Assembly: GCA_041690135.1 (NCBI GenBank)
Contig: JAWLHY010000008.1
Span: forward strand, 96,001-160,000
Length of the DNA stretch: 64,000 bases
Source of the DNA: Armatimonadota bacterium
Lineage (GTDB): Bacteria > Armatimonadota > SYMT01
Direction of reading: 5' to 3'
Position numbers and translations under genes: made by a program. The notes beneath the pieces are model-generated. The model made no database searches and had not been told where the DNA came from. It saw nothing but the letters and a program-made list of their open reading frames with translations. How positions within the stretch are numbered: position 1 is the stretch's first letter; the number at the start of each line of letters is the position of its first letter. This document shows, piece after piece, positions 1,218 through 17,610 of the stretch.

Positions 1218-3923
1218 TTACGAGACTTCTCGGGGTCGGGAGCCGTTCAACAGTTCGTGGAGCAGTTTGAGGAGCGTTTCGGGGTCCACCGGCTTGGCCA
1301 GGTAGCGGTCGAACCCCGCCCTCCGGCCCCGATCGGCGTCTTCTGCCTGGGCATATCCGGAAATCGCGACCAGGCATGCCTCCGCAGTAGCGGCCTCCTG
1401 GCGCAGGGCCTTCGCGACCGAATACCCGTCCATTCCGGGCAGGCCGATATCACACAGTACGGCGTGCGGCGACCAGTCCCGGGCGATCTCGACTCCGCTG
1501 ACGCCATCCAGGGCCAACCGTATCTCGTAGCCCTCGTCGGACAGGAGCTCGCCCAGGGTCTCCGCCGCGTCCCGGTTATCTTCGATGATCAGAATGCGGC
1601 AGTCTGCGGCCACCGGGAGAGCAGGCTCCGGGAGCACCTGCGGCGGAGAGGGTCGAACCGATTCCACTCCGGTCGTCCGGGGGAGAGTGAAGGTGAATTC
1701 GGCGCCCTGGCCGGGGCCCGCACTGGCAGCGGACACTGTGCCACCATGCATTTCGACGACCCCTTTCACCAGGGCCAATCCCAGTCCCAGGCCACCACCG
1801 CTGCGCGCCATGTCCTGTTTCCCCTGGACAAAGCTGTCCCAGATGGTGGGAAGGATCTCCGGGGAGATACCGGCTCCGGTATCGGTCACGGTGATCACAG
1901 CCCGTTCCTCGTTCTCGACGCGATCGGTATGGAGGGCGACGGTGATCCGGCCGCCGGCTGGGGTAAACTTGCCGGCATTGCCGAGGAGGTTCCCCAGGGC
2001 CTGGCAAAGGCGCACGTGGTCGCCGTACACGCACACAGGCTCCGACGGCAGCTCCAACCGCACCGCGATCCCCCGGTGCTCCAGCTCTTCCTGGTAGTCT
2101 TCCACACAGCTCCGGGCCGACGCCGCAAGGTCCAGGATCTCCCGCTGGAGGGAGAGCTTTCCCCGGTTGATCCGGGATACGTCCAGGAGATCGGACACCA
2201 GCCGGGCCATGTGCTCCACCTGTCGCCGAATGACCTCCCGGTGGCGCTCGAGGACCGGGTCGGCGGAGCCGCGCGCGCGAAGGACCGCCACCGAGTTCAG
2301 TATGGGGCCCAGCGGGTTCCGGAGTTCGTGGGCCAACATCGCCAGGAACTCATCCTTCCGGCGCGAAGCCTCGCGAACGGCCTGTGCGGCCTGGACTTGT
2401 TCCGTAATGTCGCGCGTTACGACGAGGAGCGAGCTGGGTGAGGCGCCGGGGTCCGCACCGTTTGGGGACTCGTCGGTGAACTCCGGAATGAACCGGGACT
2501 CGAAGTGGCGCACCTCGCCCTCGGGAGACGTGAAAGGAAACTGGATGGTCCGCGGTCGCCCTTCCACGAACACGGCTTCCATTTCCGCATCCCAGTAATC
2601 ACACAGGTCCGGGGGCATTCCGAGATCCCGGTTCGTCTTCCCCAGATAGTCGACAGGCGTCAGTCCCGTAAATCGGGTAATCGAGGGGCATATGAACTGG
2701 TGACGAAGCTCCCGATCTACCCGCGAGACGATATCCGGCAAATTATCCACCAGTGTGGACAGGCGACGTTCGGAAAGGCGTAGACGCTCCTCCGACTGGC
2801 GGAGTGCTTCCTCCACCCGCTTGAGATCATCCACGTTAACCGCCGTGCCGAACCAGCGGACGATCGCGCCAGACGCATCCCGGATGGCTTGTCCCCGGAC
2901 CTTGAACCACTCGTACACTCCATCCCGGCGCCGCACCCGGTACTCCAGGTCATACTGCCCGCGCCCTTCCACGGCCGCCCGCCAGGCCGCGAAGGCGCGC
3001 TCTCGATCAGCGGGATGTACTACCTGGATCCATCCCTCCCCGAGATGGGCTTCCGCGGGGATGCCGGTGAACTCCACCCATTGTTCACTGACGTAATCGC
3101 ACGACCCGTCCGGCCGGTTGGTGAAGGTCATCCCAGGGATCGATTCCAGTGTCTGGCGGTAAAACGACTCGCTGCTCCGCAGCGCCTCTTCCATCCGCCG
3201 GCGCTCCGTGATGTCCGTGCCGGAGGGGATCAGATGAGTGATCCGTCCTTCCGCGTCGCGGAGAGGGGCTATCTGGAAATCGATCGTCATCCGGCTATCG
3301 CCGGCGACCCGGACGGTCGCGTCGTAGCGGACGGTCTCGCCTCGGGCCGCCCGCTCACATGCGTCGCGCACCCGGTCTCGGACCTCGTCGGCGTAATTCC
3401 ACCAGTAGCAGTCCCAAAACTTCTTCCCGCGGACTTCGTCCAGCGCTATCCCCGCAGCCCGCAGTGGGGCCTCGTTGGCGTCGATCAGGGCGCCATCTGG
3501 CTCCAGCATGCCCACAAAGGCGAACAGATTGTTCAGCACCCGCCGTAGGTGCTGCTCGGAGGCATGTGTTTGCCGCAGGCTTTCTTCGCTGCGTTGCCGC
3601 GCGCGATGCAGCAGGGAGATGACCCAACTGACGGCCAGGCCGACCGAAAAGAATAGGGAAAGGACCAGCCAATCGACGGGCTGACTCAGGCTCCACTGGG
3701 AGAAAGGGGGAAGGAAAAGGAAACTGCCCAGCAACGCTGCCAGGCCGCTGGCTACCGCTCCCGGTCCGAACCCACCATACCAGGCGGCCAGCATGATGGC
3801 CGGTAGGAGCAGCAAAAGTGGCGCTTCCGCTCCCAGGAGTGGCCAAAGAGCGGACCGGAGGACGACGAAGACCAGGGTGGTGAGAACGGCCACCCCGTAG
3901 CGCAGGAGCGGTGGATGGGTCAT
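1218..3923 (-). CDS. Hybrid sensor histidine kinase (DUF4118-like TM region, 3 PAS/PAC, HisKA, HATPase, REC)
   Basis: Hydrophobic N-terminus, PAS/PAC repeats, FLAMLAHELRNPL H-box, NLLGNAGKF N-box, DTGAGI and GGLGLGL G-boxes, C-terminal receiver (IIEDN...CDIGLPGMDG...KP). Confidence 0.95.
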   Translation of the reverse strand: MTHPPLLRYGVAVLTTLVFVVLRSALWPLLGAEAPLLLLLPAIMLAAWYGGFGPGAVASGLAALLGSFLFLPPFSQWSLSQPVDWLVLSLFFSVGLAVSWVISLLHRARQRSEESLRQTHASEQHLRRVLNNLFAFVGMLEPDGALIDANEAPLRAAGIALDEVRGKKFWDCYWWNYADEVRDRVRDACERAARGETVRYDATVRVAGDSRMTIDFQIAPLRDAEGRITHLIPSGTDITERRRMEEALRSSESFYRQTLESIPGMTFTNRPDGSCDYVSEQWVEFTGIPAEAHLGEGWIQVVHPADRERAFAAWRAAVEGRGQYDLEYRVRRRDGVYEWFKVRGQAIRDASGAIVRWFGTAVNVDDLKRVEEALRQSEERLRLSERRLSTLVDNLPDIVSRVDRELRHQFICPSITRFTGLTPVDYLGKTNRDLGMPPDLCDYWDAEMEAVFVEGRPRTIQFPFTSPEGEVRHFESRFIPEFTDESPNGADPGASPSSLLVVTRDITEQVQAAQAVREASRRKDEFLAMLAHELRNPLGPILNSVAVLRARGSADPVLERHREVIRRQVEHMARLVSDLLDVSRINRGKLSLQREILDLAASARSCVEDYQEELEHRGIAVRLELPSEPVCVYGDHVRLCQALGNLLGNAGKFTPAGGRITVALHTDRVENEERAVITVTDTGAGISPEILPTIWDSFVQGKQDMARSGGGLGLGLALVKGVVEMHGGTVSAASAGPGQGAEFTFTLPRTTGVESVRPSPPQVLPEPALPVAADCRILIIEDNRDAAETLGELLSDEGYEIRLALDGVSGVEIARDWSPHAVLCDIGLPGMDGYSVAKALRQEAATAEACLVAISGYAQAEDADRGRRAGFDRYLAKPVDPETLLKLLHELLNGSRPREVS

Positions 3924-6355
3924 GTCCCCGCCTTCGGGTAGTGAAGGGATTCTTTTAGGGTCCGCAGCAGTTCGGCGGGGTCCGTGGGTTTGGGCAGGTA
4001 ATGGTCGAAGCCGGCAGCGCGGCCACGCTCTCGGCTTTCCGGCTCCGCGTAACCCGTAAGAGCGATCAGGACGGCATCCGCCGTCCGGGGATCGGCCCGA
4101 AGCGACTCCGTCACCCGGTACCCGTCCATCTCCGGCAAGCCGATGTCGCAGAGCACCACATGGGGTGTCCAGGTGTGAGCCAGTCCTAACCCCTCGGGCC
4201 CGGAGAACGCCAGCCGCACTTCGTAACCGGTGAGCTGCAGCAGGTCCTGGAGAGACTCCGCGGCGTCGCGGTTGTCCTCAATGATCAGCACCCGGCAGGG
4301 TCGCTCACTGGGGAGCGTGGGGGTTTGAACGGGTTCGTGTGGGATGGAGAGCTTGGCCACGGGCAGCGTCCGCAGCGGCAACCGGAGGACGAACTGGGCG
4401 CCGGGGCTGGGAGCGGGACTGGAGGCGAATACGGTGCCTCCGTGCAGTTCTATGATGCCCCTGACGAGGCTTAGGCCCAGGCCGAGCCCTCCGGTGGTGC
4501 GGGCCAACTCCTGCTCGCCCTGCACGAAGCTCTCCCAGATCCTTGGTAGCAGGTCCGCGGGAATGCCCACTCCCGTATCACGGACGACGATCCGCACCTG
4601 ATCGGTGCGATCCTCCTCCCGGCACAGTTCCACTTCGACCCGACCGCCGGCCGGGGTGAACTTGCCTGCGTTACTGAGGAGGTTGGCGACGGCCTGGCAC
4701 AAGCGGACCGGATCTCCATCCAAAAGCAAAGGCTCCCGCGGGAGGCGGACCTCCAGGATGAGGCCCTTGCCCTCGAGTTCGTCGCGGTAATCCTCCACGC
4801 ACTGGCGCACGATCTCCACCAGATTGACCGGTTCCAGTTGCAGCGAGAGCTTACCCTGGTTGATCCGGGAAACGTCGAGCAAGTCGGAGACTAACCGGGC
4901 CATATGGCGGGCCTGGCGCTGGATGATGGCCTCCTGGCGCTTCAGGAGAGGGTCGTTCGGGCCGTGGGCCTCCAGGACGGCGGCCGCGGTAACGATGGGC
5001 GCGAGAGGGTTCCGCAGCTCGTGGGCCAGCATCGCCAGGAATTCATCTTTCCGTCGGTTGGCCTCCCGCAGCTCTTCCTCAACGGCGCGCTGCGAGGTGA
5101 CATCCGTGTTGGTGCCGAACCAGCGCGTGACCTTACCCGTTTCGTCGCGGATTGGAATGGCGCGGGAAAGGAACCAGCGGTACTCACCGCTTTTGCTCCG
5201 CAACGGGAAGGTATCTTCCCAGACCTCGCCCGTGTCCCAGGAGCGCTGGATGCGCTCCACCACACGAAGCAAATGATCCGGATGGTGCACCTTCTGCCAG
5301 CCCCAGCCCTGCATCTCTTCTAGCGTGGTGCCAGTGTACTCAAACCAACGCCGGTTGTACCAGAAGATCCACCCGGTCGAGTCGGCCATCCACGCGAGCT
5401 GCGCAATGTTATCGGCCAGGGTCCGGAACCGTTCTTCGCTCTCGGACAGGGCCAGTGCGGCACGTCGTTGCTCGGTAATGTCCTTGAAGACGAGGGCGAA
5501 CCGTCCCCGTGGCGCTACGGGGGTGGCGAATACGTCGAACCAACGCTCCATCGCCTCCGAGCCGCTAACGAACCGCAGCGTTTCGCCGTCGAGGGCCACG
5601 TGGGCGTAAGTATTCACCCACTTCGGCTCCAGGTCCGGGACCAGTTCGTAGGCCGTTCTGCCCGTGGCGTCCCTCAGCCCGGTCATCTCCTCAAAGAGCG
5701 GGTTGACCTCCAGAAACCGGTAGTCCACCGGCCGGCCCTGGGCATCCTGGATTATCTCCGCAAGGCAATATCCCTCATCGATGGAGGAAAACAGGGCCCG
5801 GAATCGCTCCTCTCGCTCCCGCTGCGCCTCCTCGGCTTGCTGGGTTCCGGTCAGGTCTACCATGTTGACGACGTGCAGGATGACCCGCTCCGTGCGGTCA
5901 CGGATGGGTACGACACCGTACTTGATGAAACGCCGCTCTCCGCTGACACGGCGAATCAGGAGCACGTCGAAGTCGCGGACGTACTCCCCGCGCATTGCGC
6001 GCGCCAGCGGCCAATCCTCGAGTGGCATCGCGCTCCCGTCCGGATAACACAGCTCGAAGTACGCCACATAACGGTCCAGGTGATCGAACATCTCGGCTTC
6101 AGAAGCGAACCCGTGGATCCGCAGTCCTTCTGCATTCAGTGAGAGGATCGTGCCCTGTGGGTCCGTCAGACCAATGCCGACGGGAATACTCTCGATGACG
6201 GCTCGCAGCTTCTCCTGTTCCAAGCGCAGTGCTTCTTGCGCTTCGCGGAGTTCCTGAAGTTCGGTCAGGAGCTCACGGCCACATTCCGGCCCTGTTACGT
6301 CCGCGTCCGGGTGCGCTTCAGCGTTTGGTTCGTGATGGGGACGGGACTCCGGCAT
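3920..6355 (-). CDS. Cytoplasmic hybrid histidine kinase (3 PAS, HisKA, HATPase, REC)
   Basis: PAS/PAC repeats, FLAMLAHELRNPL, NLLSNAGKF, GGLGLGL, receiver CDIGLPEMDG. 4-nt ATGA overlap with the next kinase. Confidence 0.95.
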   Translation of the reverse strand: MPESRPHHEPNAEAHPDADVTGPECGRELLTELQELREAQEALRLEQEKLRAVIESIPVGIGLTDPQGTILSLNAEGLRIHGFASEAEMFDHLDRYVAYFELCYPDGSAMPLEDWPLARAMRGEYVRDFDVLLIRRVSGERRFIKYGVVPIRDRTERVILHVVNMVDLTGTQQAEEAQREREERFRALFSSIDEGYCLAEIIQDAQGRPVDYRFLEVNPLFEEMTGLRDATGRTAYELVPDLEPKWVNTYAHVALDGETLRFVSGSEAMERWFDVFATPVAPRGRFALVFKDITEQRRAALALSESEERFRTLADNIAQLAWMADSTGWIFWYNRRWFEYTGTTLEEMQGWGWQKVHHPDHLLRVVERIQRSWDTGEVWEDTFPLRSKSGEYRWFLSRAIPIRDETGKVTRWFGTNTDVTSQRAVEEELREANRRKDEFLAMLAHELRNPLAPIVTAAAVLEAHGPNDPLLKRQEAIIQRQARHMARLVSDLLDVSRINQGKLSLQLEPVNLVEIVRQCVEDYRDELEGKGLILEVRLPREPLLLDGDPVRLCQAVANLLSNAGKFTPAGGRVEVELCREEDRTDQVRIVVRDTGVGIPADLLPRIWESFVQGEQELARTTGGLGLGLSLVRGIIELHGGTVFASSPAPSPGAQFVLRLPLRTLPVAKLSIPHEPVQTPTLPSERPCRVLIIEDNRDAAESLQDLLQLTGYEVRLAFSGPEGLGLAHTWTPHVVLCDIGLPEMDGYRVTESLRADPRTADAVLIALTGYAEPESRERGRAAGFDHYLPKPTDPAELLRTLKESLHYPKAGT

Positions 6356-6657
6356 TCATGAACTCCAGATCGCTTCGGCACAGGCGTCGCTGCCGATCCG
6401 CTACGAAGCTAAGATAGTTTACGGCATGATCGGGAAGGGCGGATCGTCCTTCGAAACGTTGGTGAACGGGTTCGTCGGCCGCACCTTTTCGGATACTCCT
6501 GGATGGGAGCAGTGCCCCGGTAACTTGAGCGCGCCTTCCCTGAACGCATCCATTCATAGAGAGGAGTCCTGCCGGATCAGGCACAACAAGCAGGAGCGGA
6601 GTGGCGAACGGCGAGCCGGTGAGCGGAGATCTCGCCGCGATGTAAGGAGAGCAGGGG

Positions 6658-7950
6658 ATGGCGACGGACCGACGGCGGGTCGTAGTAACGGGCATGTCAA
6701 TCAACACCCCGCTTGGCGACGACCTGGACACCTTCTACGCGGCACTCCTCGCGGGCCGTTCGGCCATCACCCGGTGGAAGTTCTTCGAGCACGAGGGCGT
6801 CTACTCCAAGGTCGGCGGTGACCTCTCCGATTATGATTTCGGCGCGAAGCTCTCCGCACTGCGGGCGCGGCTTCCGGAAAGCCTGGGACTCCGGCTGCGG
6901 CAACTGTGCCGGAAAGCTCCGTTCTCCACGCGCCTTTCGATGCTGGCCGCGGCGGATGCCTGGCTGGATGCCGGGCTGGATGCGGGTATCGATCCGGCCC
7001 GCGGCGCGGTCCTGATTGGCGGGCACAACCTCAATACCCGGTACCTGATCGAGAACTACAACGTTTTTCGGGATGAGCCGGATTACATCGACTCGCAGGG
7101 AGCGTTGCTGACGCTGGATACGGACCATGCCGGCTCGGTGAGCGAGGTCCTGGGTTGGCACGGGGCGGCTTACACGATGGGTGGCGCATGCGCGAGCGCC
7201 AACCTCGCACTGCGGAGCGCCCTGGATGAGATCCGCTACCACGATCACGACATGGCGATGCTGGTCGGCGGCGTGCTCGATTTTACCGATATGGACCTTC
7301 ACGCGATGGCGCTCATCGGCGCCATCACCGTCCAGAGCTTCAATGACGATCCGGAGCGGGCCAGCCGTCCTTACGATGTGCGGCGGGAGGGGTTCGTCCC
7401 CTCTCACGGCACCGCCGGGCTGGTGCTGGAAGAATTGGAGCACGCGCGGGCCCGTGGCGCCCGGATCTACGCGGAAGTGCTGGGTTGCACCGCCACGGCC
7501 GACGGGTGTCACCTGCCTTCTCCTTCGACGGCGGGCCAGGCGCGGACGATCTCTCGCCTGTTGGATGAGACCAGGGTCGCGCCGGAAGAGGTCGACTTCG
7601 TCTCCGCGCACGCCACGTCCACGCCACTCGGGGATCTTTCCGAACTCCAGGCGATCAAACAGGTCTTCCAGGAGCACGCTTACCACCTCCGGATCAACGC
7701 GCCGAAGTCGATGCTGGGGCATACTTGCTGGTCGGCACCGGTGGTGGAAACGGTGGCGGCGCTCCTGCAACTGCGGGGCGGTCGGCTCCACCCCTCGATC
7801 AACATCGAGGAACTGGACCCGCAGGTCGATCTGGACATCTGCGCAGACGGACCCGTGGACCACGCGGCAAACGTAATCCTGAAGAACTCATTCGGCTTCG
7901 GCGGGCTGAACTGTTGTGCACTTTTCCGGCGGCTCGAGATGGCCGGTTAG
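6658..7950 (+). CDS. Free-standing beta-ketoacyl-ACP synthase (FabF/PksF-like KS) with active-site Cys retained
   Basis: RRVVVTG start, GGACASAN (catalytic Cys), SRPYDVRREGFV, HATSTPLGD, KSMLGH, NSFGFGG. AAGGAG RBS upstream. Confidence 0.93.
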   Translation: MATDRRRVVVTGMSINTPLGDDLDTFYAALLAGRSAITRWKFFEHEGVYSKVGGDLSDYDFGAKLSALRARLPESLGLRLRQLCRKAPFSTRLSMLAAADAWLDAGLDAGIDPARGAVLIGGHNLNTRYLIENYNVFRDEPDYIDSQGALLTLDTDHAGSVSEVLGWHGAAYTMGGACASANLALRSALDEIRYHDHDMAMLVGGVLDFTDMDLHAMALIGAITVQSFNDDPERASRPYDVRREGFVPSHGTAGLVLEELEHARARGARIYAEVLGCTATADGCHLPSPSTAGQARTISRLLDETRVAPEEVDFVSAHATSTPLGDLSELQAIKQVFQEHAYHLRINAPKSMLGHTCWSAPVVETVAALLQLRGGRLHPSINIEELDPQVDLDICADGPVDHAANVILKNSFGFGGLNCCALFRRLEMAG

Positions 7951-7966
7951 CGATTTCGGGGGCTCG

Positions 7967-8713
7967 ATGGTTTTCTTTGTCACGGGGGGATCGCGCGGGA
8001 TCGGATCCGAGATCGTCCTGCAGGCAGTGGCCGCCGGTCACGACGTGGCTTTTACCTACGTCCGGGACCAGGCAGCGGCGGAAGATGTGCTCCGGCGGGC
8101 GCGCGAGGTGCGCCCGGCCGGCCGGTGTGCCGCCTATCAACTGGACGTGGCCGATGCGGCCCAGGTGGAGCGGGTGGGCGACCGCGTGCTGGAAGACTTC
8201 GACACCGTGGACGCGGTGGTGAACTGCGCGGGGATCCGGCGCGATAACCTGGCGGTGTCGATGGCGGACGAGGAATGGGCGGAAGTCCTGGCGGCCAACC
8301 TTACGGGGCCGTTCTACGTCTGTCGCCAGTTCCTGCCGACGATGCTGGCGAACCGTTTCGGGCGGATCGTGAACATCTCCTCGGTCCAGTACAACGGGGG
8401 CACGGGGCAGGCCAACTACGCCGCGAGCAAGGCAGGTCTCCACGGCCTCACCCTGACACTGGCGAAGGAATACGGCCGGAAAGGGATCACGGCGAACGTC
8501 ATAGTGCCGGGGTTCTTCGAGACGGATATGACCCGGGATACGCTGCCCGACGCTCTCCCGGAACACTGGCGGAAGCACTGCCCGATGCCGGGAGGGCGGT
8601 TCGGGCGCCTCTCGGAGCTGGCGGGGACCGTGCTCTTCCTCACCTCGGAAGCCGGCGGCTTCATCAATGGCGAGATCCTGCACGTCACCGGCGGCCTCAA
8701 CCACACCCTCTGA
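7967..8713 (+). CDS. fabG: 3-oxoacyl-ACP reductase (FabG-like SDR)
   Basis: TGGSRGIG, NCAGI, NISS, GQANYAASKAG, PGFFETDMT. Start trimmed to ATG 7967. Confidence 0.88.
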   Translation: MVFFVTGGSRGIGSEIVLQAVAAGHDVAFTYVRDQAAAEDVLRRAREVRPAGRCAAYQLDVADAAQVERVGDRVLEDFDTVDAVVNCAGIRRDNLAVSMADEEWAEVLAANLTGPFYVCRQFLPTMLANRFGRIVNISSVQYNGGTGQANYAASKAGLHGLTLTLAKEYGRKGITANVIVPGFFETDMTRDTLPDALPEHWRKHCPMPGGRFGRLSELAGTVLFLTSEAGGFINGEILHVTGGLNHTL

Positions 8714-8726
8714 CCGGGAACCACTG

Positions 8727-9971
8727 ATGAGTTATCCTCCGCGCCCGGATCGCGTCGGTATCGAGAAGATCGCGGCCTACCCGTGCACGCTATCGCTGGA
8801 TCTCCGGCTCCTGGCGGAGAAGCGTGGGGACCCGCCGGACTATCCTCGGAACGAGCTGAACGTGGAGACACGCTCGGTAAACCCGCCCTGGGAAGACCCG
8901 GTCACCATGGCCGTGAATGCCGCACAGACACTGCTCGGCGCGGGGAATCCGGAAGAAATCGGTCTGGTGCTCGTCGGGACGGAGTCGTCCCCGGATTTCG
9001 GCAAACCGATCTCCTCCTACGTCCAGCGGTTCTGCGAGATCCCCGCGAATTGCCGGAACCTGGAGACCAAGCACGCGTGCTACAGCGGCACCGGAGCCTT
9101 GATGCTGGCCGCGCACTGGATAGCGTCCGGCCTGCACCGGGGGAAGAAGGCGCTGGTCATCACCACCGATCAGAGCCGGGTGCACCTGGAGAAGCGATGG
9201 GAGTACGTGCTCGGCGCCGGAGCGGTGGCGATGCTCGTGAGCGACCAGCCGGACGTGCTGGAACTGGAACTGGAGCACAACGGTTATTGGAGCGCCGAGC
9301 TGGCCGACACCTACCGTCCCACGTCCACCGCGGAGGTGGGGCACGCCGAAACCAGCCTCTTCGGATACCTCGAAGCGCTGGAGAACACGTATGAGGCCTA
9401 CCTCGCTCAAGCGGGACCGGTGGAGTACACCTCCCATTTCAAGAGACACATCTATCACGTCCCCTTTGGTGGGATGACCCTTCGCGCCCACCGGGCTCTC
9501 CTCCGGCGCGAGGGCATCACCCGGGCTTCCGAAGTGCGGGCCAGCTTCGAGGAGCGGGTGCGGCCGTCGCTGCATTACACCGCGCGGATGGGCGGCACGT
9601 ACGGCTCGGCCACTTTCCTCGCGTTGATGAGCCTGATCGACTCCAGCGACGATCTGGGGCCCGGCGATCGCATCAGTCTCTTCTCCTACGGGTCCGGCTC
9701 CTGCGCGGAGTTCTACAGCGCGCGCATCGGACCACGCGCGCGGGCGGTGGTGGGTGCGGCGGGGCTCGCGCGGGCGCTGGAGGAGCGGGAAACCCTCACC
9801 GTGGAGGCCTACGAGCAGATCGAGCGTGAACGCTTCGCGGCGATCGATCGGTGCGACTACACGCCGGACCTGGGCCTGCCCGGAGGACTCTATGCACGGA
9901 AGTATGCCGGATGCCGGCGGCTGGTGCTGGAAAGTGTCACCGGGTATCAGCGCAACTACGGGTGGAGCTGA
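8727..9971 (+). CDS. Hydroxymethylglutaryl-ACP synthase (PksG/HCS-type beta-branching enzyme)
   Basis: VGIEKIAAY, EDPVTMAVNAA, TESSPDFGK (Glu), ETKHACYSGT (Cys), YHVPF (His), FSYGSGSCAEFYS. Confidence 0.93.
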   Translation: MSYPPRPDRVGIEKIAAYPCTLSLDLRLLAEKRGDPPDYPRNELNVETRSVNPPWEDPVTMAVNAAQTLLGAGNPEEIGLVLVGTESSPDFGKPISSYVQRFCEIPANCRNLETKHACYSGTGALMLAAHWIASGLHRGKKALVITTDQSRVHLEKRWEYVLGAGAVAMLVSDQPDVLELELEHNGYWSAELADTYRPTSTAEVGHAETSLFGYLEALENTYEAYLAQAGPVEYTSHFKRHIYHVPFGGMTLRAHRALLRREGITRASEVRASFEERVRPSLHYTARMGGTYGSATFLALMSLIDSSDDLGPGDRISLFSYGSGSCAEFYSARIGPRARAVVGAAGLARALEERETLTVEAYEQIERERFAAIDRCDYTPDLGLPGGLYARKYAGCRRLVLESVTGYQRNYGWS

Positions 9972-9975
9972 ACGG

Positions 9976-10752
9976 ATGCGGCTCCACTGCGAAACCCGTG
10001 AGACATCTGTATGGCGTGTGCAGCTTGAGCCAAACGCCGAGGGACGCACGCTCCTGAACCCGGCCGGGCTGCGAGACCTCGAAGCCGTGCTGACGCGCCT
10101 GGAGGCGGCTGAGCACTGCCGCGTGCTGCTGCTGGAGGGCGTGCCGGGTGAGTTCTGCTCCGGGATGGACCTGCAAGCGGCCCTGGAGCGCCGGGAAGAG
10201 GTTGCCGATGATCTCCGGCGGTATGCGGGGTGCCTGCGGAGGCTGCGGGAGCTTGCCTGCGTAGTGGTAGCGGTGGCGGATGGTCGCGTGATGGGGGGCG
10301 GGGTCGGTCTCGCCGCCGTCGCCGACCTAGTGTTGGCAACGCCCCGGGCCTCGTTCGCCCTGCCGGAGCTGGCGCTGGGGCTGATTCCCTCCCTTGTGCT
10401 GGCGGTGCTCTCCGAGCGGATGCCGCCGCAAAAGGCGCGCCGCCTGGTGTTGACCGGACAGCCGATCTCAGCGGAAAAGGCCGAAGCATTTGGTTTGGTG
10501 GACCAGTTGGTGGAAATCGAGGCGCTGCCGCAAACCGTTTCGGGCCTGCTGCGCCAGCTCCTGCGAGAGGATCCGCGATCGGTCGCACGGCTGAAGCGAT
10601 TTTCCCGGGGATTGGAAGGTCGGCCACTGTCCGCGGCGCTCGAGGCCGGTTGGCGGCAAACGGCCGGCGACCTGGCGGACCCGGCCATCCGCGCCGGCCT
10701 CCAGGGGTATCTGGAGGGGGAGCTGCCCCCCTGGTTTGAGCGGCGCGCATGA
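9976..10752 (+). CDS. Enoyl-CoA hydratase-like dehydratase ECH1 (PksH-like)
   Basis: FCSGMDL, GGGVGLAAVADL, FALPELALGLIP crotonase motifs. Directly follows the HMG synthase. Start ATG 9976. Confidence 0.88.
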   Translation: MRLHCETRETSVWRVQLEPNAEGRTLLNPAGLRDLEAVLTRLEAAEHCRVLLLEGVPGEFCSGMDLQAALERREEVADDLRRYAGCLRRLRELACVVVAVADGRVMGGGVGLAAVADLVLATPRASFALPELALGLIPSLVLAVLSERMPPQKARRLVLTGQPISAEKAEAFGLVDQLVEIEALPQTVSGLLRQLLREDPRSVARLKRFSRGLEGRPLSAALEAGWRQTAGDLADPAIRAGLQGYLEGELPPWFERRA

Positions 10753-11501
10753 ATCCGATTCTCCTCGAAATAGACGCCGATGGGGTGGCGGTGCTCCACA
10801 TGCGCGACGTGGCGGGGCGAAACGCGTTCAGCCGGCCCTTCGTCGAGGCGCTGGTCGAAGGTTTGGGCGGACTCGCGGACGAGCGCGTCAAAGTCGCCGT
10901 GCTCCGGGGGCTGGACGACGTCTTCTGCGCTGGCGCAGACCGCGAATTGCTGCTCGAGCTGGCGGAGGGCCGCCTTAGCCCTTACGACCTGCTGCTCACG
11001 CGCACGCTGCTAGAGGTGCCGGTTCCGACGATCGCCGCCATGGCGGGCCACGCGGTGGGCGGCGGACTGGTCCTCGGGCTTGCCTGCGATATGGTGGTCC
11101 TGGCGCGCGAGAGCCGCTACGGCTGCAACTTCATGGATCTCGGCTTCACGCCGGGGATGGGCGCTACGGGCCTGCTCCAGGCCGCGGTCGGGGAATACCT
11201 GGCGGCGGAGATGCTTTACAGTGCCCGATATGTGCGGGGCTCGGAGTTGGAAGGGCGGTCCGGAGTCAACGCCGTGCTCCCCAAGGCGCAGGTGTTGGAA
11301 CGCGCGCTGTCCCTGGCCGCGCGGATCGCCGGGATGGAGCGATATGCCCTCCGTATGCTCAAAGAAGCCCTCGTCACTCCCCGTCGTCGCGCGTTCGAGG
11401 AAGCGCGCGCGGTGGAGACGCGGATGCATGAAACCTGTTTCGCCCGTCCCGAGGTCCGGCAGCGGATCCGGGAGAATTATCCGGACCTGGAACGAAACTG
11501 A
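10749..11501 (+). CDS. Enoyl-CoA hydratase-like decarboxylase ECH2 (PksI-like)
   Basis: AMAGHAVGGGLVLGLACD, NFMDLGFTPGMGAT (PksI-type signature), C-terminal MHETCF His. Confidence 0.9.
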   Translation: MNPILLEIDADGVAVLHMRDVAGRNAFSRPFVEALVEGLGGLADERVKVAVLRGLDDVFCAGADRELLLELAEGRLSPYDLLLTRTLLEVPVPTIAAMAGHAVGGGLVLGLACDMVVLARESRYGCNFMDLGFTPGMGATGLLQAAVGEYLAAEMLYSARYVRGSELEGRSGVNAVLPKAQVLERALSLAARIAGMERYALRMLKEALVTPRRRAFEEARAVETRMHETCFARPEVRQRIRENYPDLERN

Positions 11502-12238
11502 TGGTGCGCGACTTCCAAGAACGAGCGGTGTACGTGGCCGGGTGCGGGTGCGGGCCCGGCCCGGCGGTGGCGCTAGCTTTTTCCCGCGCGGGAGCGCGAG
11601 TCTACTTCGCGCCCGGCTGCAGGGCGGTTTCCGAGAGGGCACAACGGGACAACCTTGCCATAACAGTCGGCCGGTATGTGGTCGTATTCGAATCCGGTAA
11701 CCCGGAGGCGGAAGTGGCGGAGTTTGCTGCTTCCGCAAGATCCGCAGGGTCGCCGGATGATGCCGCACAGATCGACATCTTTGTCTGGTGTGCATGCTCC
11801 ACGCCGCCCAGTGATATGCAGCCAGGCGGTTTCGAACGGCTGCAAGAAGCGGTGGGAGAAGACAGTTGGCCGTTCGTCGCGCGGCTCCACGCTCTTCGGA
11901 AGGCAAATGGCCGTTACCCCCGCTATGCGGTTGCGCTGGCCGCACCGCTTGAAGGTAATCCTGACGGCGCCGCGACACTGGCGACGGAGGTGTTGGAAAC
12001 GCTCGTCCGGTATCACGCCACACACCTCCGCCCGGAGGGCGTGCGGGTCAACGCCGTGCGCGCGGCCGGTGGAGAGACCTCCGTCTCCCCACGTGAAGTT
12101 GCCGGTACGGTCCTCGCCCTCTGCAGCGGCCTCCTGGATGCAATGTCCGGCCAGGTCCTCCGGGTGGGGTCGGCATCACCTGCCGGGATGAGTAGCTGGC
12201 TGGCTGACCCGTCATCCGAGAAAGGAGCTTCCGGATGA
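11501..12238 (+). CDS. Degenerate SDR, paralogue of the FabL-like enoyl reductases, lacking catalytic Tyr/Lys
   Basis: Shares SWP...RYPRYAVAL...LETLVRY...GVRVNAVR...LCSGLLDAMSGQVL with 12235 and 16804. The Gly motif is GCGCGPG and there is no YxxxxxxK. Confidence 0.75.
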   Translation: MVRDFQERAVYVAGCGCGPGPAVALAFSRAGARVYFAPGCRAVSERAQRDNLAITVGRYVVVFESGNPEAEVAEFAASARSAGSPDDAAQIDIFVWCACSTPPSDMQPGGFERLQEAVGEDSWPFVARLHALRKANGRYPRYAVALAAPLEGNPDGAATLATEVLETLVRYHATHLRPEGVRVNAVRAAGGETSVSPREVAGTVLALCSGLLDAMSGQVLRVGSASPAGMSSWLADPSSEKGASG

Positions 12239-13083
12239 ACCCGAACGATTTCCGGGGCCGGGGAGTACTGGTTACGGGGGGAACCCAGGGGATCGGCCTG
12301 GCGGTGGGCCTCGCTTTCGGGCGGCTCGGCGCCGACGTCTTCCTGACCCATCGCTGGGGCTCCGCGGACGAAGCGGAACTCCGGGAGCGGTTCCGCGAGG
12401 TAGGCGCGGCGCCTCCGTCCATCCTGGAGGCGGACGTTTCCCAGGAAGAGGATACCTGCGCCGTGATGGAGCAGATCCGCGAGCACTGCGGCCGTCTCGA
12501 CGTGCTGGTGAGCAACGTCTCCTTCGCCCGGATTGCCGCCGAGCCGGCCAGCCTGCGCTGGCGGGACCTGACCCGCGGCTTACGGTATAGCGCCTGGCCG
12601 TTGGTGGAGTACCTGCAGGCGTGTCGCCGTGAGTTGGGATGCTACCCTCGCTACGCCGTGGCTCTCTCGTCCCGCGGGCCGGACATGTTCCTTCCCGGCT
12701 ACGACCTGGTAGCGGCCAGTAAGACGGTGCTGGAGATGCTCTGCCGGCAGCTGGCGACGGAGTTGCGAGAAGAGGGAGTCCGGGTGAATGCCCTCCGCGC
12801 TAACCCGGTCGATACGCGCTCCCTGGCTGCGACGTTCGGTCCCGAGTTTGCGGCGTTCTGCCGAAAGTATTACGGCGACGACTACCTGGTCCTGCCGGAA
12901 GAAGTTGCCGACGCGGTGGTGGCGCTCTGCAGTGGCTGGATGGACGGGGTCTCCGGCGAGGTGCTGTTCGTCGATCGCGGCTGTAGCTTTTCAGACAACG
13001 TGGCCCGGCTTTACACGGAGCGAGCCCAATTGGGCCTGGAGGTGGAAGCCGATTTCTCGGAACCTATCGATACGAAAGGATGA
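12235..13083 (+). CDS. Enoyl-ACP reductase-like SDR (FabL/FabI-type)
   Basis: TGGTQGIG; YDLVAASK (Y-x6-K spacing of enoyl-ACP reductases); GVRVNALR. Confidence 0.8.
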   Translation: MNPNDFRGRGVLVTGGTQGIGLAVGLAFGRLGADVFLTHRWGSADEAELRERFREVGAAPPSILEADVSQEEDTCAVMEQIREHCGRLDVLVSNVSFARIAAEPASLRWRDLTRGLRYSAWPLVEYLQACRRELGCYPRYAVALSSRGPDMFLPGYDLVAASKTVLEMLCRQLATELREEGVRVNALRANPVDTRSLAATFGPEFAAFCRKYYGDDYLVLPEEVADAVVALCSGWMDGVSGEVLFVDRGCSFSDNVARLYTERAQLGLEVEADFSEPIDTKG

Positions 13084-13355
13084 AGATGATCACACGGGAA
13101 GCGGTCTTTGAAGTCGTAAAGCGGAACCTGGGGGAAGTGGTGGAGGACCTGGAAGGGGTGGAGATCGATCCCAACCAGAGCATGGTCGAACTGGGCGCCA
13201 ACAGCCTCGACATCGTCGAGGTTGTCTCCTGCAGCATGCGCGAGTTGAAGATCAAAGTGCCCCGCGCGGAACTGTCGAAGCTCAAGAACATCGGGGAACT
13301 GGTGGATCTCCTCTACCGAGTAGCCCGCGAAAAGGAAGATCAGGGCGCCGCCTGA
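13080..13355 (+). CDS. Acyl carrier protein (AcpK/donor-ACP-like)
   Basis: Small protein with LGANSLD phosphopantetheine site. GANS is typical of beta-branching donor ACPs. Confidence 0.92.
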   Translation: MKMITREAVFEVVKRNLGEVVEDLEGVEIDPNQSMVELGANSLDIVEVVSCSMRELKIKVPRAELSKLKNIGELVDLLYRVAREKEDQGAA

Positions 13356-13374: not shown

Positions 13375-14898
13375 ATGCGCATTGCAGTGATCGGGGGAGG
13401 GGCGGCCGGGCTCACGGCAGCCTGGCGCCTGTCCCGGAAACACGAGGTGTCGCTTTACGAAGCGAACTCCTGGCTGGGCGGGCACGCGCGAACCGTGGAG
13501 GTTCCGGGACCGGGCAGGACTGTCCCTGTGGATATGGGGTTCCTCGTATTCCACGAGTGGATCTACACGAACTTTTCCGCGCTGCTCGCACATCTCGGCG
13601 TGGCTGCGGTGCCGACCCCGCCTCAGACCACTGCCGTGTCGTTCCCGGGTGGCGCGTGGAAAACGGGACTCGCGACGCCGTTCTGGAGCACCGTAAGCGA
13701 GGAAGCGGATCGTTTCCACCGGATGCTGCCCTCAGTTGTGGCCGATCCGGTCCGGTATGCCGGGTTGAAACTGGGCGACTTCCTGGACGGGAACGGGTTC
13801 TCGGAAGATTTCAAGTACAAGTGCGTGTGTCCGGTCGGCGGCTCTCGCTTCGTGACCCGGCGGGGCGTGCTGGAACTGTCGGTGCTGGAGTTTGCGGCCG
13901 GCTTTGGTCCGGTGGCGCTCTACTCCATCATCCAACCGACCTTCTGGCGGACCGTCGGGGGCGGGATGCGGGAATACATCGACCGCCTGGCAGGGGAGAT
14001 CACCGGGGAAGTTCACCCTTCCACACCCGTCCGGTCCGTCCAGCGGTCCCGCGGCGGCATCACCGTGACCCTGGCCGGTGGCCAGGTGGAGACGTTCGAT
14101 CAGGTGGTGGTGGCGACCGGCGCGGATGTGGCCCTCCGGTTGCTGGCCGATCCCAGCCCCGAGGAAAAGCTCCTGTTGGGTTCTTCCTACCAGGAGACGC
14201 GGGTGGTGCTCCATACGGACCCTTCCGTGATGCCGGACGACCGGAGCCTCTGGGCGGCAGACACCTACGTCACGCACGAGACCGCGCCCCCCTACCAGCG
14301 GGGCTGGGTGAGTTACTATCTGCCGGACACACAGCCCTGGGTGGATTTCGACATCTTCGTGACCGTGGGTGCTCCGGAAGGGCTGATCGCCCCCGACCGG
14401 ATCCTGGAGGAGCACCGGTGGCGCCACCTGGAGGCGGACAGTGTGCAGTTGCTGCGCTCCATGGAATTGCACCGGATCCAGGGGAAGCAGCGGACCTGGT
14501 TCTGCGGAGAGTACGCGGGAATGTACGGCGGTCACGAGTCCAGCGTGGTGACCGGCCTCGCCGTGGCCGCCGCGTTGGGCGCCGACTACCCCTTCACGGA
14601 AAATGCCGCGGCCTACCGGGTGTTCCTGGACACGGCCGTCAACCATATGCGCGTGCTGGACGGTCCGCGTCCGGCGGCCGATGCCACCTGGTGGCCGCCG
14701 GTGCTGGGTGAGGTGAACGCCCGGATGATCCGGGAAATCGCACGGGAAGAAGTGCGCGGGGTACTCCGGCAAAAGCTGCCCAGTCCCCTGGCGGCCCTAC
14801 TGGACCGGCTGCCCTGGATCGAGGATACCCTGGTCCGGCAGATCGCAGGGCGGATCTCGCTGCTGGAAGAGGCGGTCCGGCGCCAGCCGGAGGCCTGA
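13375..14898 (+). CDS. FAD-dependent oxidoreductase (COG2907/amine-oxidase-like, lipid-modifying family)
   Basis: IAVIGGGAAGL...YEA...LGGHART, VDMGFLVF, LHTDPSVMP, QGKQRTWFCGEY. Confidence 0.85.
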   Translation: MRIAVIGGGAAGLTAAWRLSRKHEVSLYEANSWLGGHARTVEVPGPGRTVPVDMGFLVFHEWIYTNFSALLAHLGVAAVPTPPQTTAVSFPGGAWKTGLATPFWSTVSEEADRFHRMLPSVVADPVRYAGLKLGDFLDGNGFSEDFKYKCVCPVGGSRFVTRRGVLELSVLEFAAGFGPVALYSIIQPTFWRTVGGGMREYIDRLAGEITGEVHPSTPVRSVQRSRGGITVTLAGGQVETFDQVVVATGADVALRLLADPSPEEKLLLGSSYQETRVVLHTDPSVMPDDRSLWAADTYVTHETAPPYQRGWVSYYLPDTQPWVDFDIFVTVGAPEGLIAPDRILEEHRWRHLEADSVQLLRSMELHRIQGKQRTWFCGEYAGMYGGHESSVVTGLAVAAALGADYPFTENAAAYRVFLDTAVNHMRVLDGPRPAADATWWPPVLGEVNARMIREIAREEVRGVLRQKLPSPLAALLDRLPWIEDTLVRQIAGRISLLEEAVRRQPEA

Positions 14899-14964
14899 CG
14901 CGAGGGGCCGGGACGGGTCCGGAGCGTGCCGTTTGAGCTGGGTATGAGAGGAGCATGCGAGAGT

Positions 14965-16224
14965 ATGAGCGGGGCGATGGAAGAACAGCTTTCGGTAACC
15001 GATTTCTACCTGGGCTCCGAGACGGATCCCCTTGCTCCACCGCCGGAGTTCGCGGAGTGGCTGCGAGCAACGGAGCCAGCCTGGAGCCTCTATGAGCGAT
15101 CGTTGTGCGCGGCGCCTACCGCGCGGACGCTTCTGGAAGTGCGAGGGCAACCCCATCCGGTCATCAACCTGACCTCGTACAACTACCTGGGGCTTTCGTG
15201 CCATCCGGAGGTGATAGCCGCGGCCCGCGAGACACTGGAAAGCTGGGGCACCGGCGCTTGTGGCTCGGCGATCCTCTCCGGGATGACCGTGCTTCACCGG
15301 GAGTTGGAACGCCAGATCGCCGGCTTGCTGGGCCGGGAGACCACCCTTTTGTTCAGCAGCGGCTTCGGCGGGGCATTGGGGCTCACTTCCGGGTTCCTCC
15401 GCCGGGGGGACGTCGCGGTGGTGGATGAACGGGTGCATATTTCCTTGATGGATGGCGTCCGACTTTCCGGGGCGCAGACGGCGACGTTCACTCACAACGA
15501 CCCGGCCGCTCTCGACCAGGTGCTGGCACGTTACCCGAACCGGCGCCGGGTGGTAGTCGTGGAAGGTCTTTATTCGATGGATGGCGATCTTCCCGATCTG
15601 CCGGCTCTGTTGGAAGTAGCCGAGGCGCATGGAGTGGGGCTGGTGATTGATGAAGCCCATTCCTTCCTCGCGTTTGGCGAGACGGGAGGTGGCATCACCG
15701 AACAGGCCGGCGTGCAGGACCGGGTCCGGTTGTTCTACGGAACCTTCTCCAAGGCGCTCGGCGGGATTGGTGGCTTCGTATCCGGTCCGGCGGATGCCCT
15801 GGGCTACATGCGCCTCTTTTCGCACCCCTATGCCTTCTCATGCGCCCTTCCCCCCCTGACGGTAGCCGGCTTGCTGGCAGGGCTCCGGGTGGCCACGCGC
15901 GATCGGACCCTCCGGGCGCGGTTATTGGAGAACGGCGAGTATTTCCGGAGGGGTCTGCAATCGATCGGTATCGACACCGGTCTTTCCACCACCCACGTGG
16001 TGCCGATCGTCCTCGGGCGGCGCCGGGACCTGCTCTACACGGCGGGGCACCAACTGGTAGAGCGCGGGTTGTTCCTCGCGCCGGTGGACTATCCCGCGGT
16101 GCCGGAAGACCAGGTGCGGTTCCGCGCCTCCGTGACGGCGATGCATACCCGGGAGGACCTGGACGAAGCGCTGCAAATCATCGAGGACGTGATCGCCCGG
16201 CCGCTACGCCGGGGCGTGGGCTAA
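14965..16224 (+). CDS. PLP-dependent alpha-oxoamine synthase (serine palmitoyltransferase-like)
   Basis: NLTSYNYLGL, GTGACGSAILSG, VHISLMDG, FTHND, EGLYSMDGD, IDEAHS, GTFSKALGGIGG (PLP Lys). Exact start uncertain (14926/14965/14977). Confidence 0.88.
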   Translation: MSGAMEEQLSVTDFYLGSETDPLAPPPEFAEWLRATEPAWSLYERSLCAAPTARTLLEVRGQPHPVINLTSYNYLGLSCHPEVIAAARETLESWGTGACGSAILSGMTVLHRELERQIAGLLGRETTLLFSSGFGGALGLTSGFLRRGDVAVVDERVHISLMDGVRLSGAQTATFTHNDPAALDQVLARYPNRRRVVVVEGLYSMDGDLPDLPALLEVAEAHGVGLVIDEAHSFLAFGETGGGITEQAGVQDRVRLFYGTFSKALGGIGGFVSGPADALGYMRLFSHPYAFSCALPPLTVAGLLAGLRVATRDRTLRARLLENGEYFRRGLQSIGIDTGLSTTHVVPIVLGRRRDLLYTAGHQLVERGLFLAPVDYPAVPEDQVRFRASVTAMHTREDLDEALQIIEDVIARPLRRGVG

Positions 16225-16248: not shown

Positions 16249-16782
16249 ATGGACCCGGAAGAACTGCGAGCCCTGATCCGTACGGCCCGACGAAAGCCGC
16301 TGTTCGATCCTACGGTCGCCGGGGATCCTCGCGACCTGGGGCGAGAGCAGTTGGTCCGGATTTTGCCTCACCGGGGTACGATGCTGCTGCTGGACGGCAT
16401 CGACCGGGTGGACCTCGAAGGCGGTCGTATCGTCGGCCGCCGCCGCGTGGCGGCGGCCGATCCGGTGTTCGGCGACCATTTCCCGGGCTACCCGGTCTAT
16501 CCGGGGGTCCTCCAGGTGGAGATGATGGGGCAACTGGGTCTCTGCCTGGCCGTTTTCACGGATCGGGGCGCCGTTGAACTGCCGGAGGAGGGGAGAGCCT
16601 TGCAGGTGCGCCTCCTCCGGATCCACCATGCGCTCTTTGTGCAGGAGGTCCGTCCGGATGACCGCCTGACAGTGCTGGCGAAGGTGCTGCACGAGGACGG
16701 AACCACGATGATCTGTACGGGCCAGTTGCTTCGGGACGGGGAAGTGTTAAGTATCGCGGTGCTCGAGGCTTTCCGGGCCTAG
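16249..16782 (+). CDS. fabZ: 3-hydroxyacyl-ACP dehydratase (FabZ/FabA hot-dog fold)
   Basis: ILPHRGTMLLLD and FGDHFPGYPVYPGVLQVEMMGQ. Confidence 0.88.
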   Translation: MDPEELRALIRTARRKPLFDPTVAGDPRDLGREQLVRILPHRGTMLLLDGIDRVDLEGGRIVGRRRVAAADPVFGDHFPGYPVYPGVLQVEMMGQLGLCLAVFTDRGAVELPEEGRALQVRLLRIHHALFVQEVRPDDRLTVLAKVLHEDGTTMICTGQLLRDGEVLSIAVLEAFRA

Positions 16783-16803: not shown

Positions 16804-17610
16804 GTGTTCGACTTACGGGGGAAGACAGTCCTGCTTACCGGCGGGACCATGGGGATCGGCCTCGCCACCGCGCTCAAGTTCGGAAGCGTGGGGGCGCGCA
16901 CGATCCTCACCTGCCGGTTCGGCTCGGCGGATGAGGACGAGGTCCGCAGCCAGTTCGCCGCAATAGATGCTCCCATGCCGCTGATCGTTCAGGCGGACGT
17001 GGCGAACGAGGAGGACACGGTTGCGCTGATGGACGAGATCGCGCGGGAGCACGACGGGGTCGATATCTTCATCTCCAACGTCTCGTTCGCGCTCCGGATC
17101 TCCGGGCTGGAGGACTACGATAAACGCGCTTTACTCCGGGGCATTGAGTACACGTCATGGCCCCTCTGGGCTTATACGCGGGCTCTCCGGGAGCGGTTCG
17201 GACGGTATCCGCGCTATGTCGTCGGGCTTTCCAGCGACGGCCCCGACTCCTACTACCTGAACTACGACTTCGTGGCGATGTCCAAGTCGCTTCTGGAAAC
17301 CCTCTGCCGTTACATGAATTACCGGCTCTTCGATGAAGGGGTGCGGGTAAACGTGGTCCGCTCGCGGATGATCGTGACTGAATCGATGCTCGCCACCTTT
17401 GGCGAGGATTTCGCGGAGTACCTGCGCCGCCTGAAGGTGGAGGAACTGAGCATCAGCCCCGATGACGTGGCCGGGGTGGTAGTCTCGCTCTGCAGTGGCT
17501 GGATGGACGCGGTCGCCGGCCAGGTGATCCGGGTCGACCGCGGCACGGCGTTCTTCGACAACACCATGGGGTTCTTCGAGCGGATCGAGCAAAGGCATGA
17601 GCCGCTCTAA
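16804..17610 (+). CDS. Enoyl-ACP reductase-like SDR (FabL/FabI-type), paralogue of 12235
   Basis: TGGTMGIG; YDFVAMSK (Y-x6-K); GVRVNVVR. GTG start with GGAG-rich RBS. Confidence 0.8.
   Translation: MFDLRGKTVLLTGGTMGIGLATALKFGSVGARTILTCRFGSADEDEVRSQFAAIDAPMPLIVQADVANEEDTVALMDEIAREHDGVDIFISNVSFALRISGLEDYDKRALLRGIEYTSWPLWAYTRALRERFGRYPRYVVGLSSDGPDSYYLNYDFVAMSKSLLETLCRYMNYRLFDEGVRVNVVRSRMIVTESMLATFGEDFAEYLRRLKVEELSISPDDVAGVVVSLCSGWMDAVAGQVIRVDRGTAFFDNTMGFFERIEQRHEPL

Follow-up and report, generated by a model that had tools for sequence, protein, structure and literature searches.

A putatively condensing ketosynthase heads a beta-branching operon lacking a polyketide synthase in an Armatimonadota bacterium

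A 64,000-nucleotide stretch of an Armatimonadota genome (GenBank assembly GCA_041690135.1, contig JAWLHY010000008.1, positions 96,001 to 160,000; the whole stretch is referred to here as the window, and positions are counted from its first letter) contained a ketosynthase (KS) gene at 6658 to 7950 of the forward strand. This gene was the first of 13 in an operon that lay on a single strand and ended at 18481. The KS retained a full set of condensing residues that was conserved throughout its family, the family formed a clade of its own, and the genes behind it were annotated as both a 3-hydroxy-3-methylglutaryl (HMG) synthase beta-branching cassette and the reductive enzymes of fatty acid synthesis. 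On this basis, the KS is probably, although by no means certainly, condensation competent and the sole chain builder of a self-contained type II system, free of any polyketide synthase (PKS), in which a beta-methyl-branched acyl chain would be made on acyl carrier protein (ACP) and released as an amino lipid.

RESULTS

Ketosynthase active site and profile matches

The KS open reading frame (ORF; 6658 to 7950, +) had a stop-free translation of 430 amino acids, with coordinates identical to those of an earlier prediction made for this DNA from its letters (here, the original prediction), and began with an ATG downstream of a GGAG-type ribosome-binding site (TAAGGAGAG). Two ketosynthase domains were matched by Pfam (E values of 1.7e-31 and 7.4e-30), and the ORF was therefore considered a genuine gene rather than a chance motif. 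The translation contained the motifs GGACASAN (Cys178), HATST (His318), APKS (Lys350), GHTC (His355), and KNSFGFGG, the last of which carries the Phe gate. The closest proteins, 64 to 73% identical, came from Nannocystis, Enhygromyxa, Plesiocystis, and other, mostly uncultured bacteria, and the best matches in the Protein Data Bank (PDB) were FabF proteins (233 bits). Three other FabF-like genes of the same genome, all on other contigs, encoded a Cys at this site.

Among NCBIfam models, the KS scored highest against NF005490, the PksF-type equivalog (353.4 bits; cut-off, 445), and second highest against TIGR03150, the FabF/KAS II model (292.9 bits; cut-off, 493.75). Because both scores were below the cut-offs, the KS was assigned to neither type. 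Three further KSs of the same family scored 340, 300, and 326 bits on NF005490. A search with this model for PksF equivalogs in 301 genomes of the same phylum (E ≤ 1e-90) matched two genomes, the present one and G035, in both cases through a KS of the window family that scored below the cut-off.

For comparison, seven stand-alone KSs of PKS clusters, each annotated as a neighbor of HMG synthase and ECH genes, were collected from public plasmid records, in which they were located by tblastn with the HMG synthase. This reference set was drawn from Pseudoalteromonas pTML1, Sandaracinus pSa001, Enterobacter, Methylosinus, Bacillus thuringiensis, Burkholderia FERM BP-3421, and Eleftheria, and it did not include Bacillus subtilis PksF. 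The reference enzymes scored 568, 420, 421, 290, 611, 596, and 619 bits on NF005490. Six of the seven had Ser in place of the catalytic Cys, one had Met, and none had Cys. The KS of such cassettes is described in PMC11522927 as a condensation-incompetent KS0 that decarboxylates malonyl on a donor ACP, the HMG synthase attacking a beta-keto chain carried by an acceptor ACP. The active-site motif GGA-x-AS was common to the KS family and the Ser-type enzymes, in contrast to the TAC or SAC found in FabF and FabB.

These results agreed with the original prediction in that the catalytic Cys and both His motifs were found to be intact, and in that replacement of the Cys in cassette KS0 enzymes held for the whole reference set. 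The same prediction had called the gene a cassette KS, a label that holds in part: the gene adjoins an HMG synthase, ECH1, ECH2, and an ACP, but its product falls short of the PksF-type model and lies outside the Ser-type clade.

Family distribution and phylogeny

A scan of species genomes with the KS returned 80 loci, 51 of which (L009 to L059) carried a KS of the window family at 41 to 73% identity; the remaining loci were ordinary FabF genes (31 to 38% identity). The family was distributed over at least eight phyla, including Myxococcota, Acidobacteriota, Bacteroidota, Spirochaetota, Nitrospinota, Verrucomicrobiota, Bdellovibrionota, and Pseudomonadota, as well as candidate phyla. One Chthoniobacter metagenome-assembled genome (L042) contained two copies, at 9504 and 15164, that were 61% and 53% identical to the window KS. 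In an alignment of matches covering at least 330 residues, the Cys, both His residues, the Lys, and the Phe gate were invariant in all 50 family rows, the window row included. Split or short tblastn matches (L024, L029, L036, and L048) were excluded from this alignment and from the KS trees, and L069 was excluded from the alignment for an in-frame stop. Of the top 150 matches in a HMMER search against 1.84 billion representative sequences, 25 were single-domain proteins. The Cys column was covered in 23 of these and was occupied by Cys in 21, Phe in one, and Ser in one; the Ser-bearing representative (P0260) passed the PksF-type model with 464 bits.

A first tree of the KSs, built with no outgroup, yielded a three-way split only. 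With Escherichia coli FabB and FabF, and with three KS domains of modular PKSs, added as outgroups, a maximum-likelihood tree of 61 rows was obtained (31 family KSs, 7 Ser-type enzymes, 19 FabF-like enzymes including E. coli FabF, E. coli FabB, and the 3 PKS domains). The window family (support, 100/100), the Ser-type clade (100/96), and the FabF/FabB side (98/90) were each recovered, and the window family joined the Ser-type clade with moderate support (92/72). The comparison with FabF and PksF clades that had been proposed along with the original prediction thus placed the KS in neither: the family is a separate clade, distinct from PksF-type decarboxylases and from ordinary FabF. A sister relation to the Ser-type cassette clade is likely, not proven; it is graded no higher because an approximately unbiased (AU) test did not reject the alternative in which the family was forced to the FabF side (delta lnL = 0.95; p-AU = 0.238). 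The common GGA-x-AS motif, the pattern of the HMG synthase tree (see below), and the cassette-type best hits of the other parts agree with the sister relation. As the outgroups all carry Cys and the Ser and Met enzymes form one clade, Cys is most simply read as ancestral and retained in the window family, and Ser as the derived state in PKS cassettes.

Within its own phylum, the window family was detected in 2 of the 301 genomes sampled, and the nearest relatives of the window KS were in Nannocystaceae (71 to 73% identity); this closeness and the rarity in the phylum suggest horizontal transfer of the KS. The basal subclade of the family consisted of four Spirochaetota loci (L054, L056, L057, and L058) that were without the HMG synthase cluster. 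In one of these (L057, 9989 to 13328), the KS was followed by an S-adenosylmethionine (SAM) methyltransferase and an ankyrin-repeat protein, an arrangement that may represent an alternative methyl-branching route tied to the same KS lineage.

Composition of the operon

The 12 genes downstream of the KS were compactly arranged. Four junctions overlapped by 1 to 4 bases, and the likely true starts of three genes (FabG, HMG synthase, and ECH1) were just past the preceding stop codon. The second gene (7916 to 8713, +; likely true start, ATG at 7967) was annotated as a FabG-type 3-oxoacyl-ACP reductase (ketoreductase [KR]; Pfam adh_short_C2, E = 2.6e-54; TIGR01830, 239 bits). It was followed by an ACP-type HMG synthase (HCS; 8667 to 9971, +; likely true start, ATG at 8727), an assignment based on Pfam, PDB matches, the catalytic triad, and a tree. 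The best PDB matches of HCS were CurD (278 bits) and PksG (235 bits), compared to approximately 150 bits for enterococcal and staphylococcal primary HMG-coenzyme A (CoA) synthases and 202 bits for an entry named only “Hydroxymethylglutaryl-CoA synthase.” The triad Glu106/Cys138/His264 was intact and was invariant in 56 aligned sequences. A quick tree placed the HCS proteins of the window family (43 rows; support, 97) as sister to PKS-cassette synthases (9 rows; support, 98), the two joining at 100 with the primary synthases outside. Loci from Bacillus velezensis (L091) and Azospirillum (L096), which had no annotated cassette KS, were used solely in this tree. From these matches, the window HCS is predicted to be ACP dependent.

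Next were two crotonases with a 4-base overlap. The upstream one (9754 to 10752, +; likely true start, ATG at 9976) was of the ECH1 type, the cassette dehydratase (Pfam ECH_1, E = 3.5e-36), and scored best on NF005498, presumably a PksH-type label (124.8 bits; cut-off, 250). The downstream one (10749 to 11501, +) was of the ECH2 type, the cassette decarboxylase, and exceeded the cut-off of NF005496, which we take to be a PksI-type label (279 bits; cut-off, 215). The only ACP of the operon (13080 to 13355, +) was of the AcpK, or cassette donor, type. Its best model was NF005502, presumably an AcpK-type label (74.9 bits; cut-off, 79), versus 28 to 30 bits for housekeeping ACP models.

Three ORFs were related to enoyl-ACP reductases (ERs). 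FabL/FabI-like enzymes with a Y-x6-K pair were predicted, from Pfam, NCBIfam, and alignment, at 12235 to 13083 (+; ER1) and at 16804 to 17610 (+; ER2). The ORF at 11501 to 12238 (+) was identified by alignment and a weak Pfam hit (E = 1.4e-09) as a degenerate ER paralogue; it was 35% identical to ER1, was missing a loop of 22 residues, and had neither the TGGxxGIG motif nor the Y-x6-K pair. Its stop and start codons overlapped those of its neighbors, and its position in the operon was kept. The product is probably noncatalytic and may be either a noncatalytic partner or the remnant of a decaying gene. A FabZ-type 3-hydroxyacyl-ACP dehydratase (DH) was encoded at 16249 to 16782 (+; Pfam FabA, E = 9.3e-18; NF000582, 75.7 bits). 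The presence of KR, DH, and ER activities in the operon of the KS, as originally predicted, was thereby borne out at the level of annotation by FabG, FabZ, and two Y-x6-K reductases. Neither a second KS, of the Ser type or otherwise, nor a FabH was seen in the operon in the ORF list and the Pfam results.

The remaining genes were associated with release and modification of the chain. A pyridoxal phosphate-dependent alpha-oxoamine synthase (AONS) of the BioF/Kbl/serine palmitoyltransferase (SPT) family (14926 to 16224, +; Pfam Aminotran_1_2, E = 1.4e-49) is presumed to release the chain. Against NCBIfam it scored 310 bits on BioF and 291, 271, and 228 bits on SPT models (SPT cut-offs, 500 to 670), all below the cut-offs. 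Directly upstream of it was a flavin amine oxidase (13375 to 14898, +) resembling LkcE (PDB; 210 bits, E = 4e-61), the lankacidin amide oxidase/cyclase. The last gene (17597 to 18481, +) encoded a classical short-chain dehydrogenase/reductase (SDR; Pfam adh_short, E = 1.4e-44), a candidate amino-ketone reductase, which scored 107 bits on the KdsR model (cut-off, 400). No PKS megasynthase gene was found in the 64-kb window or in the annotated related loci.

Conservation of the cluster in related loci

Gene content was compared by tblastn with the window proteins in 27 loci that had at least 4 kb upstream and at least 7 kb downstream of the KS. Matches to FabG were found in 25 of these loci, HCS in 24, FabZ in 24, ER in 23, ACP in 23, ECH2 in 22, AONS in 20, and ECH1 in 19, and this core set recurred in Myxococcota, Bacteroidota, Spirochaetota, Acidobacteriota, and other phyla. 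None of the 27 gave a match to the amine oxidase or to the degenerate reductase. The whole set was absent from L057 and L058, and L016 contained no HCS within its 7-kb downstream flank. Spirochaete versions of the cluster had one reductase only. On the mobilizable Serratia fonticola plasmid pSF001 (L099, 1238 to 6757), the core order KS-FabG-HCS-ECH1-ECH2-ER was present; its KS and HCS regions had no annotated coding sequence and gave tblastn matches in several pieces, and these genes may be broken.

Several related loci carried additional genes. In a Sphingobacteriaceae locus (L043), the order was a major facilitator superfamily (MFS) protein, a phosphopantetheinyl transferase (PPTase), Omp85, a GNAT-like acyltransferase, a PAP2_3 protein, a malonyltransferase, FabZ, KS, FabG, HCS, and ECH1, followed by ER and ECH2 on the other strand and then by ACP, ER, AONS, and SDR. 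Malonyltransferase genes were found in 28 of 53 related loci, GNAT-like acyltransferase genes in 14 of 53 (four phyla), and PAP2_3 genes in Bacteroidota loci; the products of these three added genes fit a membrane amino lipid. The window itself contained neither a malonyltransferase gene nor a GNAT-like acyltransferase gene. A metagenome scan with the amine oxidase identified two loci, L109 and L110, the second of which was without the cluster. The L109 oxidase (5662 to 7125) was 65% identical to that of the window and lay in the order FabZ-KS-FabG-HCS-ECH1-ECH2-oxidase-SDR. With this distribution, the oxidase looks like an accessory that marks a sub-variant of the pathway.

In most phyla, the locus contained no other KS. 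A second, FabF-like KS was present in or beside several spirochaete-group clusters (at 3508 in L032, 8737 in L033, 5451 in L034, 6564 in L045, 16593 in L049, 19431 in L051, 15313 in L053, and 10979 in L055) and was immediately upstream of the cluster in L032 to L035, L041, and L045. These second KSs formed a distinct FabF-like clade (support, 100) in which the Cys and both His residues were present, and they were therefore regarded as active KSs rather than chain-length factors.

Sequences flanking the operon

The operon was flanked on the opposite strand by hybrid PAS/HisKA/HATPase/receiver histidine kinases at 1218 to 3923 (−), 3920 to 6355 (−), and 19366 to 21372 (−), and an O-methyltransferase was encoded at 214 to 1377 (−). 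An ORF of 263 amino acids directly downstream of the operon (18578 to 19369, −) was matched by neither Pfam nor NCBIfam models. Two ORFs, at 21799 to 22605 (+) and 29217 to 29981 (+), encoded DUF1559 proteins with N-terminal methylation motifs. Matches to PF07596 numbered 110 in this genome and 0 in 14 control genomes; abundance of DUF1559 is a hallmark of planctomycetes.

DISCUSSION

Proposed function and evidence that weighs against it

The capacity of the KS for elongation, which the original prediction had put forward, is supported by the full set of active-site residues and their invariance across the family. Since the operon, which encodes KR, DH, ER, and ACP as well, has this KS only, elongation is the natural reading of its role. 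The chemical steps set out here are predicted from gene content, as are the chain length, the identity of the amino acid, and where and how often the chain is branched. A housekeeping malonyltransferase would load malonate onto the AcpK-like ACP, and the KS would decarboxylate part of the resulting malonyl-ACP to acetyl-ACP, which could serve both as primer and as donor for HCS. Self-priming would then transfer acetyl onto Cys178, and condensation with malonyl-ACP would give acetoacetyl-ACP. HCS, ECH1, and ECH2 could convert a beta-ketoacyl-ACP to a beta-methyl-enoyl-ACP, which one of the ERs would saturate. The simplest site for the branch is the first cycle, in which acetoacetyl-ACP would pass through 3-methylcrotonyl-ACP to isovaleryl-ACP, producing an iso-terminal chain without leucine. 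The same KS, with FabG, FabZ, and the other reductase, would carry out ordinary elongation cycles; AONS would join the completed branched chain on ACP to an amino acid; and the resulting amino-ketone may be modified by the SDR and the LkcE-like oxidase. The presence of AONS and the SDR favors an amino lipid over a free polymethyl chain as the product.

Several observations weigh against the condensing, amino-lipid reading. In the tree, the KS family is closest to decarboxylases, and the score on the PksF-type model is higher than on the FabF model (353 versus 293 bits), which makes a chiefly decarboxylating role conceivable. The AU result above leaves the sister relation insecure, and raw identity to FabF (32 to 35%) slightly exceeds that to the Ser-type enzymes (28 to 32%). 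The FabF-like KS beside the spirochaete-group clusters might do the bulk of elongation there. The best PDB match of AONS was the SPT of Sphingobacterium (224 bits), with Kbl and BioF/Kbl entries within 10 bits, which bears on the choice of amino acid and on chain length. There was no acyltransferase in the window operon, and GNAT-like acyltransferase queries from L043 and L011 found no counterpart in the genome, which is 97% complete.

Alternative explanations

An explanation that we consider unlikely is that the KS has a PksF-like role despite its Cys, mainly decarboxylating malonyl-ACP for HCS and leaving extension to housekeeping FabF/FabB or to a second KS of the cluster. Such a role would be consistent with the likely sister position to the Ser-type clade (92/72), the PksF-type model as best NCBIfam hit, the AcpK-like ACP, the common GGA-x-AS motif, and the extra FabF-like KS in several spirochaete-group loci. 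It sits poorly with retention of the Cys in 50 of 50 rows over a range of 41 to 73% identity, as this residue would have been free to change if only decarboxylation mattered. Furthermore, the KR, DH, and ER of the cluster need a beta-ketoacyl chain on the same ACP, and in most phyla the locus offers no other KS to make it.

The presence of the amine oxidase directly upstream of AONS raises another, distinctly unlikely explanation, a small-molecule pathway in which a short branched acyl-ACP (C5 to C7) and an amino acid would give an alpha-amino ketone that the LkcE-like oxidase converts to an imine or a pyrazine-type volatile or signal. In Pseudomonas, pairs of an oxoamine synthase and an enzyme of the amine oxidase family reportedly make pyrazines. 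The resemblance of the oxidase to LkcE (210 bits), its recurrence in L109, and the failure to find an N-acyltransferase or head-group enzyme in the genome would fit this explanation. However, a complete set of KR, DH, and ER would be more than a C5 unit requires, the oxidase was absent from all 27 related loci with enough flank, and in other loci the core occurs together with acyltransferase and PAP2 genes, all of which argue against this explanation.

The original prediction went further, with an iterative KS whose beta-keto intermediates are alternately reduced (FabG/FabZ/ER) or methylated (HCS/ECH1/ECH2/ER) so that an isoprenoid-like polymethyl chain would arise on ACP independently of the mevalonate (MVA) and methylerythritol phosphate (MEP) pathways. 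This is very unlikely: although both enzyme sets, two Y-x6-K ERs, one ACP, and one active KS would offer both fates in each cycle, and the pairing of the basal KS subclade with a SAM methyltransferase (L057) suggests a clade used to methyl-branched chains, neither the sequence nor the comparison with related loci gave a sign of repeated branching or of alternation with reduction, no mechanism of alternation was visible, the spirochaete versions have one reductase, and a sphingoid-like product is indicated by AONS and the SDR. The pattern known for such products is a single methyl in the iso or a mid-chain position. A single branching event, most simply a first-cycle iso-terminus, would account for every gene equally well. 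In the improbable case that branches are placed at regular intervals, phytanyl-like chains would be built on ACP from malonate alone and released by AONS as amino lipids, and the KS clade would be the ancestral, still-condensing form behind the PKS-cassette decarboxylase.

Significance

In its known form, HMG-synthase beta-branching serves giant polyketide assembly lines in an accessory role, and the KS there is a crippled decarboxylase. In the window, the five-part cassette has a fully equipped KS and forms part of a self-standing system of the fatty acid type, the release enzyme of which would condense the chain with an amino acid; the same combination recurs across many phyla. No description of a PKS-free cassette with an oxoamine synthase was found in the open-access full-text literature searched. 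The operon is probably a widespread branched amino-lipid operon, undescribed in that literature, in which a beta-branching cassette is combined with a still-condensing KS. If this is true, bacteria would have a route to methyl branches in lipid chains that is independent of both leucine and SAM, and an undescribed family of branched amino lipids would await isolation. The KS clade also provides a testable picture of the origin of the PKS cassette.

Comparison with known systems

All five component types of the HCS cassettes of bacillaene (AcpK/PksF/PksG/PksH/PksI) and curacin (CurB-F) have homologs in the window. An HMG synthase with a Glu/Cys/His triad and an ECH1/ECH2 pair, the hallmarks of such cassettes, were both found, with ECH1 alone below its model cut-off (125 versus 250 bits). 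The window differs from these cassettes in that its KS keeps the Cys and is below the PksF cut-off, in that one ACP is present instead of separate donor and acceptor ACPs, and in that there is no modular PKS acceptor; KR, DH, and ER are stand-alone enzymes, and release is attributed to AONS. By its title, a study of the fogacin type II PKS (Sato et al. 2019) reportedly concerns beta-alkylation machinery with discrete type II enzymes, there with KS-CLF (chain-length factor) pairs and an aromatic polyketide as product.

The KS resembles FabF/KAS II in its fold family, its Cys-His-His triad, Lys, and Phe gate, and its occurrence as a stand-alone enzyme with FabG, FabZ, and ER. It differs in lying outside the FabF/FabB clade (98/90) and in having GGACAS rather than TAC(A/T)(S/T)G.

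The bacterial sphingolipid pathway comprises Spt, the acyltransferase bCerS, and the reductase CerR, according to PMC11087976. The window has, in comparison, an AONS with the Sphingobacterium SPT as best PDB match, narrowly ahead of Kbl and BioF/Kbl entries, and an SDR that is a candidate reductase; an SDR follows AONS in L043 and the amine oxidase in L109, and related loci also have the GNAT-like acyltransferase and PAP2_3 genes. Unlike that pathway, the window would draw its acyl chain from a dedicated fatty acid synthase (FAS)-like set with a branching cassette, its AONS scored below the cut-offs of the SPT models, and an N-acyltransferase was not found in the genome with the two GNAT-like queries.

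The chemistry proposed for the first cycle has a counterpart in the alternative isovaleryl-CoA route of myxobacteria (MvaS, LiuC, AibA/B, and AibC), in which an HMG thioester is converted through 3-methylglutaconyl and dimethylacrylyl to isovaleryl. In myxobacteria, the intermediates are CoA esters and the decarboxylase subunits are unrelated; under the simplest model for the window, the same chemistry would take place entirely on ACP.

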